Shown one piece after another: positions 19,165 through 28,513 of a DNA stretch of 64,000 nucleotides. Positions within the stretch are counted from its first letter, which is position 1. Each line of letters starts with the position of its first letter. This DNA comes from a virus, in IMG/VR virus record IMGVR_UViG_3300022833_000005, positions 43,937 through 107,936 of that record, one strand, 5' to 3'. Below the pieces are notes generated by a model that was given only the letters and a program-made list of their open reading frames with translations, had not been told where the DNA came from and searched no databases. Made by a program: the position numbers and the translations under genes.

Positions 19165-22100
19165 ATGAACAAATTAGTTTGTGCAGCAAATCCTTGCCCA
19201 ATTATACTTAGTAGTGCATGTGTCTTTTACGAAGGCCCTAATTTATTATGTGCTAATATTTTAACAAATCAAACTGTTGAAGAAGCTCTTAAGAATATTG
19301 ATGCTCTCTTGTGTGCTGGTAAAGGTTTAGATGGTTCATCTGGTACATCTGGTACATCTGGTACAAGTGGCACAACTGGTACCAGTGGAACGTCTGCTAC
19401 ATCAGGAACATCAGGTACAAGTGGTACAAGCGGAACATCAGGTACAAGTGGTACAACAGGTACATCAGGTAGTAGTGGAACATCAGCTACAAGTGGAACA
19501 TCAGGTACGTCAGGTACTAGTGGTACATCAGGTACATCTGGTACAACAGGTACAAGTGGTACAACAGGTACAAGCGGTACTTCTGCTACTAGTGGTACAA
19601 GTGGAACAACAGGTACATCAGGTACATCTGGTACAACAGGTACGAGTGGTACAACAGGTACAAGCGGTACTTCTGCTACTAGTGGTACAAGTGCTACATC
19701 TGGCACTAGTGGTAGCTCTGGATATGATGGAGATAAATATAAAACAACATCTACTGATTCATTTTTATTATGCAATCCAGGATGTTTAACAGTTGATCTA
19801 GGATTAGCATTCACTCCTGGTCAGTCTATTGTTGTAGCTCATGATATAAATAATTATCAAGAATGTACAATAATAACATACAACTCTGCTAATGGAGAAT
19901 TATGTTTTACAGAACCAATAACTTGTGTAGGAAGTGGTACATATAGTGAATGGTATATAAATTTAGATGGATCAACCGGTGGTGATGGGTCTTCTGGTAC
20001 TAGTGGTACTAGTGGAACAACAGGTACTAGTGGTACGTCTGGTACAAGTGGTACTAGTGGTACATCAGGTACAACAGGTACAAGTGGTACAAGTGGTACA
20101 TCTGGTACAAGTGGTACGACAGGTACATCTGGTACGACAGGTACAAGCGGAACATCTGCTACCAGTGGAACAACAGGTACAAGTGGTACAACAGGTACAA
20201 GTGGTAGTAGTGGCACAACAGGTACAAGTGGTACAAGTAGTACATCAGGTAGCAGTGGTACAGTTGGTACATCTGGTACATCTGGTACATCAGCTACATC
20301 TGGTACAAGTGGTACATCAGGTAGTAGTGGTACAACTGGTACTAGTGGTACAACAGGTACAACAGGTACATCTGGTACAAGTGGATTAAATGGTTCGTCT
20401 GGAGCAGCAATAGCAAATTGGTATGCAAGTTTTTCTGATAGCACTACTCAATCTCTTTCAGCATCAAATGTTTCAACAGCAATTACATTTAATACAATAG
20501 AATTAAACAATGGAGTTGCCTTAGATTTTAATCAAGAAATAAGATATCCACATGCAGGAATATATGAAGTAGGTTATTCTTTACAACTAAAGCAATCTGG
20601 AAGTGAAACTTCGTATTCTAGCGTTGATGTATTTTTAAGAAAAAATGGTAATGACATTATAAGGAAAGATAGATTAATTGATATTGAACCAGGAGGTAGG
20701 GTTAATTTACCTTTTGCTTCATTTATATTGAATTTAGAAGCAAATGATTATTTAGAATTAATGTTTGCTTCTACTAATCCAAATATTCAAATTTCAGCAG
20801 TTGCAAGTTCATCTTCTCCTTATACTAAACCTGCTGCACCTTCAGTTATATTTATTACAAAACAAATAGGAGTGTCCGTAGGATCAACTTCTGGAATATC
20901 AGGTACAACAGGTACAAGTGGTACAAGTGGTACATCTGGTACAAGTGGCACAACTGGTACAAGTGGCACAACTGGTACATCTGGTACAAGTGGTACAAGT
21001 GGTACAAGTGGTACTTCAGGACTTCTTGGATCCGCAGCAGTTCCTTTAGTTATTACTGGTACTAATATTTCTATCAATCAATCTAGCTCAATTGCTAATG
21101 GTTTTTTAAGCTCAACAGATTGGAACAATTTTAATAATAAAGCAAACACAGCTTCTCCTACATTTACAGGAACAGTTGGCGGTATAACAAAAGAAATGGT
21201 AGGACTTGGAAACGTAGACAATTTGCCAAGTCTTTTTATAGAAAACGCAACTGGAGGTAGCCAATCAACACAAAGAGTTGGAGCGGGTACTGCAACAGGA
21301 AGTCAATCTACTATAAGTGGTGGTGAAAATAATAATTCAAGTGGCGATTATTCAACAGTTGGTGGTGGTCGTACTAATATTTCGAGTGGTAATTATTCAA
21401 CAGTTGGTGGTGGTCGTATTAATACTTCGAGTAGTTTTTATTCAACACTTAGCGGTGGTCTTAGTAATATTTCGAGTGCTAATTATTCAACAGTTGGTGG
21501 TGGTCAGACTAGTACTGCGAGTGGTTTTTATTCAACAGTTAGCGGTGGTTATATGAATGTTGCAAGTAACACTAACTCTACAGTAAGTGGAGGGGTTAGC
21601 AATACAGCAAGTGGTGGTTATTCAACAATAAGCGGTGGTAAATCTAATACAGCATCAGCTGGTCTTTCTTCAATACTAGGTGGTGCCTATAACAACACAT
21701 CAACATTTGTTAACTCACACATTATAGGTAGTAATATAATAGCATCTGTAGCAAATACTACTTTCGTTGAAGACTTATCTATTAAGAATATTCCAATTGG
21801 CTCAACTTTAGAGGTTGGAGCAAACAATGTCTTGATAGCGGGTTCAGCGGGTGGAGCAAGTCTTTTTGAAGAAAACGCAACAGGAGGAGTTGGTTCAACA
21901 CAAAGAGTTGGTTCGGGTACAGCATCAGGTAATACTTCAACAGTTAGTGGTGGAGATACTAACATAGCATCAGGTGATAGCTCAACAGTTGGTGGTGGTA
22001 TAGCGAACACAGCATCAGATAATAAATCTACAGTTGGTGGTGGAAGTAATAATCAAGCTACGGGTAGTTATTCTACAATTGGTGGTGGTAAGAACAACGC

Positions 22101-22710
22101 AGCTAGTGCATTCAGTAGTTTTATGGGTACTACTAAGGGTTCTACGGTAAGTGGAGGTGGAAATAATACCGCAGGTGGTGTCGGGGGTAATTCGGGCTAT
22201 GAAACAATTGGCGGTGGACATCATAATATAGCAAGTGGGGATGTGTCTACCATTAGTGGTGGAGATACTAACATAGCATCAGGTGATAGCTCAACAGTTG
22301 GTGGTGGTTGGAATAACACAACAAGTACTCGATTTACAGTAATAGCTGGTGGTGGTATAAATACTGCAAGTGCTCCTTACGGAGTAGTAAGTGGAGGTAA
22401 GGACAATATAGTAAGTGGTAATCATTCTACAATAAGCGGTGGTCGTAATAATACTGCGAGTAGTTTTTATTCAACAGTTGGTGGTGGTTTTAGTAATATT
22501 TCGAGTGCTAATTATTCTTCAATAACGGGTGGAAAATTAAACAACACATCAACATTTGCTAACTCACACATTATAGGTAGTAATATAACTTCTAACAGAA
22601 TAAATACTACATTTGTACAGAATTTATCAATTACAACTATTCCAACAGCAAGTGCGGGATTACCTTCGGGTTCAGTTTGGAGTAACGGAGGGGTTTTAAA
22701 TATAGTATAA
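19165..22710 (+). CDS. Fibre/appendage protein: (Gly-Thr-Ser)n collagen-like stalks, C1q/BclA-CTD-like domain, two STVxGG-N beta-solenoid blocks
   Basis: Three Gly-X-Y Ser/Thr tracts; WYASF...GIYEVGYSLQ...LEANDYLEL domain (~20420-20860); 14-aa STV(S/G)GGxxNxAS repeats. Confidence 0.75.
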   Translation: MNKLVCAANPCPIILSSACVFYEGPNLLCANILTNQTVEEALKNIDALLCAGKGLDGSSGTSGTSGTSGTTGTSGTSATSGTSGTSGTSGTSGTSGTTGTSGSSGTSATSGTSGTSGTSGTSGTSGTTGTSGTTGTSGTSATSGTSGTTGTSGTSGTTGTSGTTGTSGTSATSGTSATSGTSGSSGYDGDKYKTTSTDSFLLCNPGCLTVDLGLAFTPGQSIVVAHDINNYQECTIITYNSANGELCFTEPITCVGSGTYSEWYINLDGSTGGDGSSGTSGTSGTTGTSGTSGTSGTSGTSGTTGTSGTSGTSGTSGTTGTSGTTGTSGTSATSGTTGTSGTTGTSGSSGTTGTSGTSSTSGSSGTVGTSGTSGTSATSGTSGTSGSSGTTGTSGTTGTTGTSGTSGLNGSSGAAIANWYASFSDSTTQSLSASNVSTAITFNTIELNNGVALDFNQEIRYPHAGIYEVGYSLQLKQSGSETSYSSVDVFLRKNGNDIIRKDRLIDIEPGGRVNLPFASFILNLEANDYLELMFASTNPNIQISAVASSSSPYTKPAAPSVIFITKQIGVSVGSTSGISGTTGTSGTSGTSGTSGTTGTSGTTGTSGTSGTSGTSGTSGLLGSAAVPLVITGTNISINQSSSIANGFLSSTDWNNFNNKANTASPTFTGTVGGITKEMVGLGNVDNLPSLFIENATGGSQSTQRVGAGTATGSQSTISGGENNNSSGDYSTVGGGRTNISSGNYSTVGGGRINTSSSFYSTLSGGLSNISSANYSTVGGGQTSTASGFYSTVSGGYMNVASNTNSTVSGGVSNTASGGYSTISGGKSNTASAGLSSILGGAYNNTSTFVNSHIIGSNIIASVANTTFVEDLSIKNIPIGSTLEVGANNVLIAGSAGGASLFEENATGGVGSTQRVGSGTASGNTSTVSGGDTNIASGDSSTVGGGIANTASDNKSTVGGGSNNQATGSYSTIGGGKNNAASAFSSFMGTTKGSTVSGGGNNTAGGVGGNSGYETIGGGHHNIASGDVSTISGGDTNIASGDSSTVGGGWNNTTSTRFTVIAGGGINTASAPYGVVSGGKDNIVSGNHSTISGGRNNTASSFYSTVGGGFSNISSANYSSITGGKLNNTSTFANSHIIGSNITSNRINTTFVQNLSITTIPTASAGLPSGSVWSNGGVLNIV
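19333..19723 (+). repeat. 9-bp-period tandem repeat encoding (GTS/GTT/ATS)n, block 1
   Basis: ggtacaagt/ggtacatct/ggaacatca units. Confidence 0.95.
19987..20403 (+). repeat. 9-bp-period tandem repeat encoding (GTS/GTT)n, block 2
   Basis: Same triplet units. Confidence 0.95.
20881..21021 (+). repeat. 9-bp-period tandem repeat encoding (GTS/GTT)n, block 3
   Basis: Same triplet units. Confidence 0.95.
21944..22308 (+). repeat. Exact 56-bp direct repeat (21944-21999 and 22253-22308) within the solenoid repeats
   Basis: ttagtggtggagatactaacatagcatcaggtgatagctcaacagttggtggtggt occurs twice. Confidence 0.9.
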
Positions 22711-23070: not shown

Positions 23071-23104
23071 AGAGCGATAATATAGTTAATATTTATCGCT
23101 TTTA
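23071..23104 (+). terminator. Probable intrinsic terminator
   Basis: agcgataa...ttatcgct inverted repeat followed by a T-run. Confidence 0.55.
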
Positions 23105-23107
23105 CTA

Positions 23108-23115
23108 TATATTTG
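23108..23115 (+). promoter_or_regulatory. Bacteroidota -7 box (TATATTTG) for the sulfation cassette
   Basis: TAnnTTTG 16 nt upstream of the ATG at 23132. Confidence 0.55.
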
Positions 23116-23131
23116 TTAAAAACAAGAAACA

Positions 23132-23950
23132 ATGAATAAAAAAATCTTTTACAATTCTTCTTTGCCAAGGGCGGGTTCGACTTTAATATCTAATATTATT
23201 GCTCAAAACCCTAACTTTTATTGCACTCCAACTTCGGGTGTTTCTGATTATCTTTTAGGCAATAGAGCGACTTTTATTAATTCCCAACCTATTAAGGCAC
23301 AAAATAAAGAAAATATGGAAAAATCATTCTTTAATTATGCTAAATTTGGTATTCAAGGGTATTTTAGTGAATTAACTGACAAGCAGTTAATACTTGACAA
23401 AAGTAGAGATTGGGCGATTAATTATAGGTTGTTAGATGAAATCTATGCAAATCCTAAAATTATTTGTATGGTTAGAGATGTTAGGGCAATCTATTCTTCT
23501 ATGGAGAAAAACTTTAGAAAAAATCCTCACAAAGAAAATCATATACAAAATGTATCACAGTTAGTTGGAACTACTTTAGACAAAAGAGTTGATATTTGGG
23601 CAGATGGTTTACCCGTAGGTGTTGCAATGGATAGGTTAAAAGATATTTTTCAACAAGGGCTAGATAAACATATTTTATTTATTCGCTATGAAGATTTAAT
23701 GTCAAACCCAAAAGAAACAATGAATAGGGTGTATGACTATTTTCTTATTGATAGATTTGAACATTCATTTGATAAAATAGAACAATTAACACAAGAAGAT
23801 GATGGCGTTCACGGAATATATGGCGACCATAAATTAAGGCAAAAATTTAATATGTTACCAAATGATTTTGAAGAAATTTTAGGAATAGAATTATCTGAAA
23901 AAATTAAAAATACTTATCAGTGGTTTTTTAATAAATTCTACACGCTATGA
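23132..23950 (+). CDS. PAPS-dependent sulfotransferase
   Basis: 5'-PSB loop SSLPRAGST, 3'-PB motif MVRDVRAIYSS, and RYEDL. Confidence 0.88.
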   Translation: MNKKIFYNSSLPRAGSTLISNIIAQNPNFYCTPTSGVSDYLLGNRATFINSQPIKAQNKENMEKSFFNYAKFGIQGYFSELTDKQLILDKSRDWAINYRLLDEIYANPKIICMVRDVRAIYSSMEKNFRKNPHKENHIQNVSQLVGTTLDKRVDIWADGLPVGVAMDRLKDIFQQGLDKHILFIRYEDLMSNPKETMNRVYDYFLIDRFEHSFDKIEQLTQEDDGVHGIYGDHKLRQKFNMLPNDFEEILGIELSEKIKNTYQWFFNKFYTL

Positions 23951-24396
23951 TATATTGGTTCACAGGGCAACCATCCCACGGAAAAACAGTTTTAGCAAAT
24001 TTGTTAAAAGATATATTTAAGGACAAAAAAGTGTTTCACGTTGACGGAGATGATTTAAGAGCCTTAACTTTGAATAAGGACTATTCCAAACAAGGTAGGT
24101 TAGATAATGTAAGAGGTGCGCAAAAAATAGCCCATTATCTACACAACGAAGGTTGTACGGTGGTGGTTTCATTAGTTTCTCCTTACAGAGAGCAAAGAGA
24201 ACAGTTAAAGAGTGTTTTAGGGGAAAACATTATTGAAATATTTATACACACAACAGAAGCAAGAGAAAGAGATTGTTATAGGGTTGAAGACTATGAAAAA
24301 CCGTTAGAAAACTTTATTGATATTGATACGACTTTTGATACACCCGAACAATCACTTAAAAAAATAATAGAAAAATGTCAGATAGAAAATATTTAG
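23947..24396 (+). CDS. cysC: Adenylyl-sulfate (APS) kinase
   Basis: IYWFTGQPSHGKT P-loop, DGDDLR, VSLVSPY, YEKP motifs. Confidence 0.88.
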   Translation: MIYWFTGQPSHGKTVLANLLKDIFKDKKVFHVDGDDLRALTLNKDYSKQGRLDNVRGAQKIAHYLHNEGCTVVVSLVSPYREQREQLKSVLGENIIEIFIHTTEARERDCYRVEDYEKPLENFIDIDTTFDTPEQSLKKIIEKCQIENI

Positions 24397-24779
24397 TCCA
24401 ATCCGCAACTCAGTCTTCATTTAGTGAAGTAAAATTCTCTATGTATATTGGAAGATGGCAACCTTTTCACACAGGTCATAGATGGTTAATCGACCAAAGA
24501 TTAGACGAGGGAAAAAATATCTTAATTTGTATTAGAGATATAGCACCCGATGAAAAGAATCCTTGGACAGCAGAAGAGGTTACATTGAACTTAAATAAAG
24601 TATTAAAGGATTTAATTGAAGAGGGTCGTGTTAAAATTATAACTATTCCCGACATAGAATCTATTAATATTGGTAGGGGTGTTGGATATGATATTATAGA
24701 ACACTTACCACCTAATGAAATTAAAGAAGTATCAGCTACTAAAATTAGAAATCAAATGAAAAAAGATGGTAAATTATAA
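24375..24779 (+). CDS. HIGH-superfamily nucleotidyltransferase (cytidylyltransferase-like; candidate minimal ATP sulfurylase)
   Basis: IGRWQPFHTGH and VSATKIR motifs; operonic with cysC. Confidence 0.75.
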   Translation: MSDRKYLVQSATQSSFSEVKFSMYIGRWQPFHTGHRWLIDQRLDEGKNILICIRDIAPDEKNPWTAEEVTLNLNKVLKDLIEEGRVKIITIPDIESINIGRGVGYDIIEHLPPNEIKEVSATKIRNQMKKDGKL

Positions 24780-24975
24780 AAGGCATTTAGGCAAAACTAT
24801 TTCTTGGAGAATTATAGGCACTTTAGATACTATTATTTTATCAGGATTAATAACGGGAGATTTTATGATTGGCTTATCTATTGGAGGTGTAGAAGTCTTT
24901 ACAAAAATGATATTATACTTTTTCCACGAAAGAGCTTGGTATAAATACTCTAAATTTGGATTAGATAAAAAATAA
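24766..24975 (+). CDS. DUF2061-like small membrane protein
   Basis: KTISWRIIGTLDT...KMILYFFHERAW signature. Confidence 0.8.
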   Translation: MVNYKRHLGKTISWRIIGTLDTIILSGLITGDFMIGLSIGGVEVFTKMILYFFHERAWYKYSKFGLDKK

Positions 24976-25010: not shown

Positions 25011-28000
25011 TCAAAATCTAAACCATTTTTCTGAAATTAATAAATTAATTTTTTCTATTACTTGAACTGATTTAATACTCCTATGGCATTCAAAATGTCT
25101 AGGAGTATTTTTATGTTCAGGGCACCAATTCCAATCTCCCTTATCGAATGTATGTTCAGTTTTATTCCAACAACTGTTACATACAGATAAATCTTTTACT
25201 CTATAGCATTTAAATTCATGACTTTCTTCAGTGAAGTTTGATATCATAATAACTTCTTTATCTAAGGCCCAAGCTAACCAACTCAATCCTGAAGACAATC
25301 CTATAAAGAATTCACTTTGTGTGATCCATTCTATAGTGCTTTCTAATGATTTATTCTGAAGAGGTTCACAATTATCAAAAGGATTATCTTCTAATGAAAC
25401 ATTCTTAATAATATAGCCTTCTTTGTGCAAGTAATTAATTACATCTTGCCATCCTTCTCTGGTCCAATATTTACATCCTGCTGTACTATTTGTAGCTATT
25501 GTAACTAGTTTATAGTGTGCTTTATTTCCTGATTTATATATTTTTGGTTTTATTTCTACATAACTCAATCCTAATATATTTGTAGCTGTTTTTTGTAATG
25601 GTATTGTATTTGGTAATTCAGGTTCTTTATTAGTATTATAGAACCATCCTATTTTATACATTGCATATAAATTAGGTGCAACCTCTCCAGGTTTAATAAA
25701 TTCTAATTCAGGATATTCATTTTCAAATAAGAAATTTTTATAAGTGCTAACAATCATCTTACATTTATGCTTTTTACGAAACTCTTCAACATAGGGTATC
25801 CATGCAATTGTATCTCCTAAAGAAGAGCTATCAAAAGCTATGTAAACACGTTCATTTTCTAAATTAAATTCTTTAGTATATACAACCTTTCCATCTTCTG
25901 TCTTTATTATTGTTTTCCAGGCAGTATAATATTCTCTATCAAGTCTTATCCAAGAATTAACACCTATTGTGTTATTATATATAAGTTTTTCACCATCATA
26001 CATTTCAACAGTAAATTTTTTATTAGATGTACCTTTTATTTCTAAATACGGTTTACCTACAAAATGTTGTATAACATAAAAGTCTTCTTTAATTTTATTT
26101 TGCATCACATCAATATTTAATACTCTGTTATATAAACTTTTATGATTGCCTCCAAATGTAATATTTGTATTATTACTAGGAACTTCATAGACATCTTTAC
26201 TATCTAATGCTTTTTTTAATTGATCATCTATGTTTGATAATCCAACATTTTCAATTGCATGTATGTACTTTGTAAACATATTTCCATACTGAGGTAAGTT
26301 GCGTGCAATTATTGGAAGATTATAAGATATAGCTTCTCTCAACACTAGAGGATTGCATTCCCAAGTGCTATTAAACATAAATACATCTGCAGCTAACATA
26401 AATAAATGTGTATCTGATCTTTCTCCCCATATGTGTACATTAGAAGGTACATCTTTCATAATTGGTTCCCAATATTCACTAAAGTTTACTGCTTGATTAC
26501 CTACAAAATGAAAATCTACATTTGGAAAGCTTCTTGCTAGTTCTACACCTTCTCCCTGATTTTTTCCTTTAGTCCACAGTCCTATATTTACTACATGTTT
26601 TCTATTATTATCAAAACCTAATTCATATTTTGCTTCAACTTTTGATTTTAGATTATTTACAACAGGTTCTATTGGAAATTCAATTACGTCTTTGTAAGAA
26701 GGTGTATCTTTAAATGTTTTTAAATGATAAGAAGTGCAAAAAGCATAAGCTTCTGGATGATATTTTTTTTCTGTATCTGGAGAAAAAGATATGTTATGAC
26801 ATGTTTCTATAATTTTCCATGTTCTATCGTTTGCATACAATAAGTTAAGTACTTCTGCTGATCCATTTCCTAAGTGTTCAGACATTTCATCTATGTGTAC
26901 AATATCAATTTTGTTATTTCTTATAATATCAATGAGTTCTGTTTTATCTTCTCCTAATGTATAGATGTTTTTTACTATTTCTCTTATTTGATTTTTCTGT
27001 ACAACATACTCGTCACTGTAATTAGCCCACTCTACTACATAAATATTAAATCCAACTAATGATTTTATTCTTCTAAGTAAGAATTCAGGCATACCACCTG
27101 TAGATAAATGTGGAGCAATGAATAAAACTTTTTTTGAAAGTTGGTTTATTGTGTCTTGCATTATACTAATGTCTTTTTCTCCATGAAAAGCTAATAGATG
27201 TTCTTCTTTTGCAGGTGTGGCAACCCATTCTGATATATGATTTACCTCACCCGTAAATTTAAAACTACTTACATCTACTTTACCCTTATAGTTTATATAC
27301 ATTAGAGGAAGTCCTATGTGGATATTATGTTTCCACAATAACACATTCATTATAGTTTCTTCGTGATAAGGGGCATACAATTGTGGGTTTTTCACTATAG
27401 CTGGATGACTGCACATCCAAGACCATTCATCAATAAAATTACGAGAATTCTGACCAGCTACAAAGTAACCACTTTGTCTATACTTATTTCTAACTGATTG
27501 ATCTACATTAAAAAGTTTACATGCAGCATGTTCTAAACTTTCATGTAAATCATCTCTAGTTTCTACTCCACCACGACCATTAATAAATAAATAATCATAT
27601 ACACCTTCTACAAAGTATGGATGTGTAGCTTCATTAGGTAGATAATCAAATATAGTATCTATATATTTAGTTACTACAGTGTCTGAATCTATATAAGCTA
27701 TTGTCAAAGCATGCTTATCTAAAGCATCTGCAACAATTAAAGGTCTTTGTATTAGTAATTTATAAATCTGAGAGTTATTTCTATCTAAATAGTTATTTTT
27801 TTCTATGTGTACACCTTCTAAATTCCATTCAATTGTTTTGTATGCACCTTTTATTTTTATATCAGAGTTTATCATATACACTATTACAGGTATATTGCTA
27901 ACATTATTGATACTTTTTACAGCCATTGTTACTATTTCACTATAAGATGCATTTGCATATAATATGTATGATTTTTCCAATTTCATATGTATATACGTAT

Positions 28001-28487
28001 AATACCCATAATACTCGTTAGAGAAAATACATTTAAGTTTTGGATAACGTTCTGTCATTACATCTGGTGTAAGATCAAGTTGATGGTGAGTTTCGTGTAT
28101 ATTCCCTTCATGCTCTCCCTGCTCCATTTCATAAGGAATAGCAACTAAACAGTCTTTACCTAATTCAATAATTTTATCAATTAATTCTATAGCTTGATCT
28201 TTATGTAAATGTTCTAAAACATCTCCTAGAATAATAAAATCATAGTCTACTATAGAGAACTCAAGTATGTCTTTACAATATACATTATCATACTTTTTGA
28301 TTAACCCATATTTATAGATGTAAGGACTATATATCTCCACTGCATCTATATTATAGCTTTCTGATTCTAATAAATCTGCGTAAGTTCCTATACCAGGACC
28401 TACATCTAATAGTCTTTTATGAGTTGGGACATTGTCTTGAAACCACTGTTTTACTTCAGTTTTAAATAAATAAAAGCTAATAGGCAT
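25011..28487 (-). CDS. Multidomain glycan-modifying enzyme: SAM methyltransferase + GT-A + GT4 (GT-B) + TibC/Aah-like autotransporter heptosyltransferase
   Basis: LDVGPGIG/GDVLEH; YIDSD; PHLSTGGMP and ECNPLVLREA; SSLGDTIAW, GLSSGLSWLAW and CNSC...CP...FEC. Start set to ATG 28487 because the track's TTG start lies within a promoter box. Confidence 0.82.
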   Translation of the reverse strand: MPISFYLFKTEVKQWFQDNVPTHKRLLDVGPGIGTYADLLESESYNIDAVEIYSPYIYKYGLIKKYDNVYCKDILEFSIVDYDFIILGDVLEHLHKDQAIELIDKIIELGKDCLVAIPYEMEQGEHEGNIHETHHQLDLTPDVMTERYPKLKCIFSNEYYGYYTYIHMKLEKSYILYANASYSEIVTMAVKSINNVSNIPVIVYMINSDIKIKGAYKTIEWNLEGVHIEKNNYLDRNNSQIYKLLIQRPLIVADALDKHALTIAYIDSDTVVTKYIDTIFDYLPNEATHPYFVEGVYDYLFINGRGGVETRDDLHESLEHAACKLFNVDQSVRNKYRQSGYFVAGQNSRNFIDEWSWMCSHPAIVKNPQLYAPYHEETIMNVLLWKHNIHIGLPLMYINYKGKVDVSSFKFTGEVNHISEWVATPAKEEHLLAFHGEKDISIMQDTINQLSKKVLFIAPHLSTGGMPEFLLRRIKSLVGFNIYVVEWANYSDEYVVQKNQIREIVKNIYTLGEDKTELIDIIRNNKIDIVHIDEMSEHLGNGSAEVLNLLYANDRTWKIIETCHNISFSPDTEKKYHPEAYAFCTSYHLKTFKDTPSYKDVIEFPIEPVVNNLKSKVEAKYELGFDNNRKHVVNIGLWTKGKNQGEGVELARSFPNVDFHFVGNQAVNFSEYWEPIMKDVPSNVHIWGERSDTHLFMLAADVFMFNSTWECNPLVLREAISYNLPIIARNLPQYGNMFTKYIHAIENVGLSNIDDQLKKALDSKDVYEVPSNNTNITFGGNHKSLYNRVLNIDVMQNKIKEDFYVIQHFVGKPYLEIKGTSNKKFTVEMYDGEKLIYNNTIGVNSWIRLDREYYTAWKTIIKTEDGKVVYTKEFNLENERVYIAFDSSSLGDTIAWIPYVEEFRKKHKCKMIVSTYKNFLFENEYPELEFIKPGEVAPNLYAMYKIGWFYNTNKEPELPNTIPLQKTATNILGLSYVEIKPKIYKSGNKAHYKLVTIATNSTAGCKYWTREGWQDVINYLHKEGYIIKNVSLEDNPFDNCEPLQNKSLESTIEWITQSEFFIGLSSGLSWLAWALDKEVIMISNFTEESHEFKCYRVKDLSVCNSCWNKTEHTFDKGDWNWCPEHKNTPRHFECHRSIKSVQVIEKINLLISEKWFRF

Positions 28488-28505
28488 AATCTTTGATTTT
28501 AAATA

Positions 28506-28513
28506 CAAATGTA
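28506..28513 (-). promoter_or_regulatory. -7 box (TACATTTG) for the multidomain GT
   Basis: TAnnTTTG on the minus strand, 18 nt before the ATG. Confidence 0.55.

Follow-up and report, generated by a model that had tools for sequence, protein, structure and literature searches.

Sulfate assimilation, sulfation and dissimilatory sulfate metabolism all start with ATP sulfurylase; synthesis of 3'-phosphoadenosine 5'-phosphosulfate (PAPS) needs this enzyme together with adenosine 5'-phosphosulfate (APS) kinase. A four-gene cassette in the phage record IMGVR_UViG_3300022833_000005 appears to be a self-sufficient PAPS supply with its consumer, in which a small HxGH nucleotidyltransferase (NT) would form APS from ATP and sulfate and feed an APS kinase. 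From the sequence and comparative evidence, the probability of this reading is put at about 0.65. The DNA analysed (the window, 64,000 nt) is the last 64 kb of this 107.9-kb IMG/VR record, which has an estimated completeness of 93%. The cassette consists of four open reading frames (ORFs), taken from the ORF list and, for all but NT, named by Pfam:

23132-23950, + strand: sulfotransferase, 272 aa
23947-24396, + strand: APS kinase, 149 aa
24375-24779, + strand: HxGH nucleotidyltransferase (NT), 134 aa; candidate miniature ATP sulfurylase
24766-24975, + strand: DUF2061 small membrane protein (PF09834), 69 aa, single repeat

The original prediction, made from the sequence of the window, described four overlapping genes, and this holds: the successive overlaps are 4, 22 and 14 nt, and all four proteins pass the Pfam gathering cut-offs. 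The two motifs it named are also present, GRWQPFHTGH at residues 26-35 and SATKIR at residues 120-125 of the 134-aa ORF. Its proposal that the small NT fills the sulfurylase step is supported by comparative evidence: adjacency to APS kinase, fusion to it in two orders, the lack of both Sat and CysD in 18 of 20 cellular carrier genomes, sulfotransferase neighbours and a link between DUF2061 and cys genes.

The NT family is large. It comprises at least 8000 clusters at 90% identity and 1194 clusters at 50% identity. NT is carried by 462 viral stretches in IMG/VR; a further 19 loci are in bacterial genomes (Marinimicrobia/Fidelibacterota, several Bacteroidota, one gammaproteobacterium and one Saccharibacteria metagenome-assembled genome, MAG). 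Adjacency was counted in 99 fetched loci, comprising these 19 cellular loci and 80 viral ones. An APS-kinase homologue lies directly 5' of NT in 94 of the 99 (16/19 cellular, 78/80 viral). Two cassette members are optional in this set: the window-type sulfotransferase is present at 7 loci and DUF2061 at 16.

NT and APS kinase are also found fused in one protein. The kinase comes first in P0130, P0142, P0175 and P0181 (the last matching APS_kinase with 231 bits), while NT comes first in P0145, P0152 and P0160. Among 43 long cluster representatives of the family, 31 contain APS_kinase, one contains DUF2061 and one contains an S-adenosylmethionine (SAM) methyltransferase. Where NT is encoded separately, its partner can be a canonical, lid-bearing APS kinase, as in G048 (226 bits), L005 and L018.

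To our knowledge, only two types of ATP sulfurylase are recognised, Sat and CysDN. The 108-kb phage genome (93% complete) contains no Sat and no gene of the PAPS_reduct/CysD family; NadV was not found in it either. Among cellular carriers, the 18 genomes in which neither Sat (PF01747) nor CysD (TIGR02039) was detected include a single-chromosome assembly of about 1 Mb and Bacteroidota MAGs of 2.4-3.8 Mb. A background sample of 151 genomes was drawn from the phylum of the Fidelibacterota carrier; 98 of these match APS kinase strongly, and Sat or CysD is present in 84 of the 98. All three NT carriers in the sample fall among the 14 remaining APS-kinase orphans (P about 0.002), and the odds ratio for carriers against NT-negative APS-kinase genomes is about 69; these absence statistics are inflated, because many carriers are incomplete single-amplified genomes or MAGs and share ancestry, while the direction of the effect is clear.

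The other 11 orphans (G007, G016, G025, G031, G039, G063, G102, G119, G121, G138 and G153) also match APS kinase strongly, and neither Sat, CysD nor NT was detected in them. Incompleteness or further unrecognised APS sources may explain this.

NT belongs to the CTP_transf_like family (PF01467; 22.5 bits, cut-off 21) and also passes the cut-off of TIGR00125 (31.0 bits, cut-off 27.7). Its structure model, obtained with AlphaFold from an alignment of 55 sequences, is confident (pLDDT 91.3, pTM 0.83) and has the HIGH fold. The HxGH motif (H32-T-G-H35) and the SxTxxR motif (S120-A-T-K-I-R125) are nearly invariant among 55 diverse family members. The family also has invariant residues of its own: R54, R101, Y105, D106, E109 and H110, plus PP; R101 and H110 are within the block GRGVGYDIIEH.

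Sulfotransferases use PAPS as donor through two PAPS-binding motifs of the family, 5'-PSB and 3'-PB. The cassette protein matches Sulfotransfer_3 (64.5 bits, cut-off 27; 2.2e-17) and Sulfotransfer_1 (44.5 bits, cut-off 22; 1.6e-11) in Pfam, and phrog_27463 at 8.5e-42. Its single solved relative is the PAPS-dependent sulfotransferase domain of CurM (4gox). Both PAPS-binding elements, 5'-PSB (LPRAGSTL) and 3'-PB (VRDVRAIYSS), align to this domain; by its sequence, the enzyme is therefore of the PAPS-dependent type and needs PAPS, not APS. With both motifs kept, and with Sat, CysD, PAPS reductase and NadV all missing from the phage genome, the product of the cassette is presumably for sulfation rather than assimilation, as the original prediction had it. 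Sulfotransferases of several Pfam families adjoin the NT-kinase pair (Sulfotransfer_1/_3, _5 and _2); in phage L099, for example, a Sulfotransfer_2 gene is located 3' of DUF2061.

The kinase of the cassette is an APS_kinase (PF01583) with 71.9 bits against a cut-off of 21.1. Its PDB matches are APS kinases in 21 of 21 cases, and alignment with canonical APS kinases shows that it retains the P-loop, DGDxxR, GRxxN, SPxxxxR and YExP motifs. It scores below the NCBIfam equivalog cut-off (TIGR00455; 70.7 against 138.7 bits). A complex prediction for kinase and NT scored 0.00, which is evidence neither for nor against an interaction.

DUF2061 is found in sulfate-activation operons outside phages. 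The window protein matches PF09834 with 78.1 bits (cut-off 23.1; 6.6e-22). Its nearest longer relatives are tandem-repeat forms of 140 aa in Flavobacteriia, which are 60-75% identical to it. In the Flavobacteriales locus L114 (853-1704, - strand), DUF2061 is fused to a canonical APS kinase. Among four other Flavobacteriales loci (L115-L118), DUF2061 occurs directly 5' of APS kinase and a CysD-like gene, between cysteine synthase and sirohaem synthase, or next to a CysQ-like phosphatase. Since it is fused or adjacent to cys genes in this way, DUF2061 marks sulfate-activation operons; it seems to act in sulfate activation as a hitherto uncharacterised membrane component.

The settings of the NT-kinase pair often involve surface structures. 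In Marinimicrobia and the gammaproteobacterium, the pair is inside clusters of the capsule or O-antigen type, which encode a Wzx-like flippase, Wzi, DegT and a UDP-sugar dehydrogenase; a Sulfotransfer_5 gene is close by. Phages L026 and L027 carry the full cassette next to genes for a tail sheath and a collagen-repeat tail fibre; in L026 this fibre, which has a Peptidase_S74 chaperone, is located 3' of the cassette. The arrangement mirrors that of the window, where the neighbours of the cassette are a Gly-Thr-Ser fibre protein and large glycosyltransferase fusions. Surroundings of this kind also suit an alternative in which NT works like TagD or HldC and activates some other small phosphate ester or anion that is used to decorate polysaccharides, and the link to APS kinase comes only from sharing a glycan cluster. 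NT is similar in size to minimal cytidylyltransferases, and structures of that type (2b7l, 3glv and 5x9q) match the NT model with Z scores of 5.7-7.0. However, such a role leaves unexplained why NT is physically fused to APS kinase, in either order, and why the two pair in phages without polysaccharide genes. It also does not account for the absence of Sat and CysD in carriers or for the DUF2061-cys link; this alternative is considered quite unlikely.

If NT is a sulfurylase, PAPS supply and use would proceed in three steps. Firstly, NT would catalyse the conversion of ATP and sulfate to APS and pyrophosphate. Sulfate would occupy the place taken by the nicotinamide mononucleotide (NMN) phosphate in related NMN adenylyltransferases (NMNATs); the two motif histidines and the arginine of SATxIR would handle the ATP phosphates. 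The family-specific arginines suggest themselves as binding sites for a small anion, and the invariant Arg54 and Arg101, the latter in the GRGVGYD loop, are candidate sulfate ligands. Secondly, the overlapping APS kinase would phosphorylate the 3'-OH of APS to give PAPS, pulling the unfavourable first step forward; NT could possibly cover the lid-less active site of the kinase and channel APS to it. Thirdly, the sulfotransferase would move sulfate onto an acceptor; this is probably a glycan, belonging either to the adjacent fibre/glycosylation module or to the host envelope. Pyrophosphate and 3'-phosphoadenosine 5'-phosphate would be cleared by the pyrophosphatase and CysQ of the host, and DUF2061 would serve as the membrane protein of the sulfate-activation operon.

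Besides the two carriers in which Sat is also present (G005 and G157) and the inflation of the absence statistics, a number of findings weigh against a sulfurylase role. The first concerns ancestry. In both sequence and structure, the nearest relatives of NT are NMNAT/NadM and phosphopantetheine adenylyltransferase (PPAT), not Sat. Foldseek places archaeal NMNAT and NadM on top for the NT model, with PPAT next; a second structure search, independent of Foldseek, gives Z scores of 9.8 for NMNAT, 9.5 for PPAT and 9.0 for NadM. Sat structures match as well, which counts in favour of the sulfurylase reading: 1v47_B with bound APS reaches Z 7.6 (root-mean-square deviation 3.5 over 117 residues), and 2gks, 1r6x, 1x6v, 1j70, 4maf and 4dnx reach 5.1-5.9. 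Judged from the model, the likeness to Sat is at the level of the superfamily and is lower than that to NMNAT and PPAT.

Profile comparisons give the same picture. The window NT has no PF01747 match in Pfam. When the family profile was compared with 12 Sat catalytic domains in hhalign, only the last 37 columns aligned (70% probability), covering no more than the C-terminal ISATxIR/ISGTxxR motif. A point for the sulfurylase reading is that the NT end of the fused relative P0160 matches the end of the Sat profile, although below threshold (21.6 bits, cut-off 24.3). No recognisable counterpart of QxRN or GRDHAG, the motifs with which Sat binds sulfate, occurs in NT. The possibility that NT is a truncated Sat was rejected, because the C-terminal motif alone aligns in the profile comparison. 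NT is a HIGH superfamily member of an NMNAT-like lineage; the minimal sulfurylase of the original prediction is therefore supported as to its role but not as a derivative of Sat.

NMNAT catalyses adenylyl transfer in NAD synthesis, and this likeness raises the possibility that NT is an NMN or nicotinic acid mononucleotide adenylyltransferase making NAD, with the P-loop kinase acting as a nucleoside or nucleotide kinase in NadR-like salvage. The best sequence and structure matches of NT are to archaeal NMNAT and NadM, and GRxQPxHxGH, NP(F/W)T and DIE are common to NT and these enzymes. Database names for the family are "cytidylyltransferase-like" or "NMN adenylyltransferase", and JGI labels many members NMNAT. 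However, the scores of NT are about one third of the NCBIfam cut-offs for archaeal NMNAT/NadM (45.7 against 127 bits for TIGR01527 and 42.3 against 181.2 bits for NF002243, with residues 22-99 matched). Alignments to NMNAT sequences in the PDB (best E 6e-8) are similarly limited to residues 23-97, so that only the N-terminal 75 residues align. NT is about 25 residues shorter than NMNAT between the DIE motif and SxTxxR; in NMNAT, the segment that NT lacks reportedly carries nicotinamide-contacting residues (structures 1ej2/1hyb).

The genetic partners of NT differ from those of NMNAT as well. Nudix and NadR kinase are fusion partners of true NMNATs; domains of these types were found in none of the 43 long NT representatives. 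The partner of NT is instead a true APS kinase, which is canonical in some fusions. NadD was found in four of five tested carriers; since these carriers own a normal NAD enzyme, NT is not needed as one, and the phage is without NadV. A role in NAD synthesis is thus very unlikely for the family as a whole.

The picture may differ in one distant branch. Fused kinase-NT proteins (phrog_10255, which represents the fused form) occur in the Xanthomonadaceae siphophages Xylella phage Bacata (L001, 4578-5318) and Stenotrophomonas phage DLP6 (L002, 4614-5345), with about 35% identity. In phages of Xylella, Xanthomonas and Stenotrophomonas, distant relatives of the fused type occupy contexts other than those described above. 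In Xylella phage Bacata, a COG3236/NADAR gene adjoins the fused gene, which is an NAD/ADP-ribose context and a point in favour of NMNAT activity there. This branch may act on a different substrate in NAD/ADP-ribose chemistry.

Jumbo phages form the most populous viral clade of NT carriers. Here (L073, 8348-9211 and neighbours) the genes 3' of the pair encode an N6/N4 DNA methylase, a DUF5856 protein and a DHH/TseH-like protein. The complete 321-kb jumbo-phage genome G170 has weak sulfotransferase-like matches only, and no clear one adjacent to the pair. A consumer is thus not found next to every pair. In addition, the kinase of the window is without the 14-residue lid segment of canonical kinases, and its substrate range may therefore have changed.

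These two observations would fit a pair that makes or handles another 3'-phospho-adenylyl compound, following the logic of PPAT and dephospho-CoA kinase, or an NT whose substrate is APS or PAPS itself, with a part in adenylyl transfer, proofreading or regulation. PPAT is structurally as close to NT as NMNAT is. On the other hand, NT pairs and fuses with canonical, full-length APS kinases, and sulfotransferases with PAPS-binding motifs recur beside the pair; an NT that consumed APS would leave the carriers still without an APS source. An explanation of this kind is unlikely. The loss of the 14 lid residues, together with the overlap of the kinase and NT genes and their fusion elsewhere, could also mean that NT assists the kinase without any catalysis of its own, for instance by standing in structurally for the missing lid, and that APS comes from the host. 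This is highly improbable: NT accompanies lid-bearing kinases too, and most cellular carriers have no recognised APS source. Moreover, HxGH, SxTxxR and several further Arg, His and Asp residues are nearly invariant across the 55 diverse members, a pattern which points to catalysis.

As a sulfurylase, NT would resemble several known systems while belonging to none of them. It shares with Sat, with Sat-APS kinase and with PAPS synthase (PF01747; 1v47, 2gks, 1x6v) the HIGH fold class, the H-x-x-H signature and a C-terminal (I/L)S(G/A)TxxR motif. Fusion to APS kinase in either order is likewise known from bacterial and fungal Sat-CysC and from metazoan PAPS synthase, and the proposed reaction is identical. 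In contrast to Sat, which has about 380-400 aa and an N-terminal PUA-like domain, NT has 113-134 aa, is without this domain and is nearer to NMNAT in lineage. With archaeal NMNAT/NadM (TIGR01527, NF002243; 1f9a, 1ej2, 2qjo), it has SxTxxR in common in addition to the motifs listed above; it differs in its shorter length, its own invariant residues and its partner, which is APS kinase rather than Nudix.

CysD/CysN catalyses the reaction that is proposed for NT, and shares its operon logic with CysC and, in Flavobacteriales, with DUF2061. The fold is unrelated, however, as CysD/CysN consists of a PAPS-reductase-like ATP pyrophosphatase and a GTPase; CysDN couples to GTP hydrolysis, and NT shows no sign of this. 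PPAT (CoaD) and dephospho-CoA kinase (CoaE), which are fused in the animal CoA synthase, also combine a small HIGH adenylyltransferase with a P-loop kinase acting on the 3'-OH of the adenylyl product. In this case the substrate is 4'-phosphopantetheine and the kinase is of another family; the analogy is one of logic, not of membership.

NT is probably the founding family of a third class of ATP sulfurylase, recruited independently of the other two. This class would consist of NMNAT-derived enzymes of 113-134 residues which together with APS kinase make up a mini PAPS synthase, either as two genes or as a fusion, and are widespread in aquatic phages and in streamlined bacteria (Marinimicrobia, Bacteroidota) that lack Sat and CysDN. 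A description of the NT family was not found in the literature searched; a survey of NAD/ADP-ribose genes in viruses (PMC9503650) mentions neither APS kinase nor the NT family. If the assignment is correct, a known pathway (PAPS synthesis and sulfotransfer) has a new enzyme family at its first step, and genomes scored as unable to activate sulfate need to be re-scored wherever NT occurs. It would also provide a very small PAPS-regenerating module for enzymatic sulfation. Finally, it would mean that phages bring their own sulfate-activation chemistry, in this case beside fibre and glycosylation genes.

NT proteins vary in architecture. The window NT has an N-terminal extension of 20 residues (24375-24440) which is coded partly within the kinase gene and is modelled as an extra beta strand; it is kept in the close phage clade and is absent from the 113-aa cellular homologues. 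P0238 is a fusion of a SAM methyltransferase with NT, while P0168 and P0226 (about 375 aa) have an unassigned N-terminal region of 240 residues ahead of NT. In L020, a 104-aa ORF with no Pfam match lies between kinase and NT.

The window has a GC content of about 30%. Salt-lake metagenome runs contain identical DNA, and the phage is of salt-lake origin; a blastn search of the cassette against deposited phages gave no matches. The cassette is bounded by an 81-nt gap on its 5' side and by a convergent gene for a 1165-aa methyltransferase/glycosyltransferase fusion on its 3' side. Two features can be read in the gap:

about 23073-23103, + strand: inverted repeat (8-bp stem, 12-nt loop) followed by TTTT
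23108-23115, + strand: TATATTTG, candidate promoter element matching TAnnTTTG, 17 nt 5' of the ATG

The inverted repeat may be the terminator of the preceding 104-aa ORF, judging from its sequence; a terminator scan did not detect it. TAnnTTTG is the Bacteroidota-type -7 box. The window has 99 boxes of this type where 110 +/- 9 are expected, which is no enrichment, and sigma-70-like sites do not exceed chance either (15 against 13.8 +/- 3.5 in shuffles). The original prediction gave the cassette its own promoter. This is not borne out: both motif classes occur at chance frequency in this AT-rich DNA, although a promoter ahead of the cassette is plausible.

The flanking genes of the window encode large proteins. 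Immediately 5' of the cassette, a protein of 1181 aa (19165-22710, + strand) contains long, proline-free, collagen-like Gly-Thr-Ser tracts and Ser/Gly-rich repeats; this fibre protein is a possible acceptor for glycosylation or sulfation. On the 3' side, the 1165-aa fusion (25011-28508, - strand) combines a SAM methyltransferase with a GT4-type glycosyltransferase and a heptosyltransferase-like GT9 domain. In L023, a related GT4+GT9 protein of 763 aa is encoded 3' of DUF2061.

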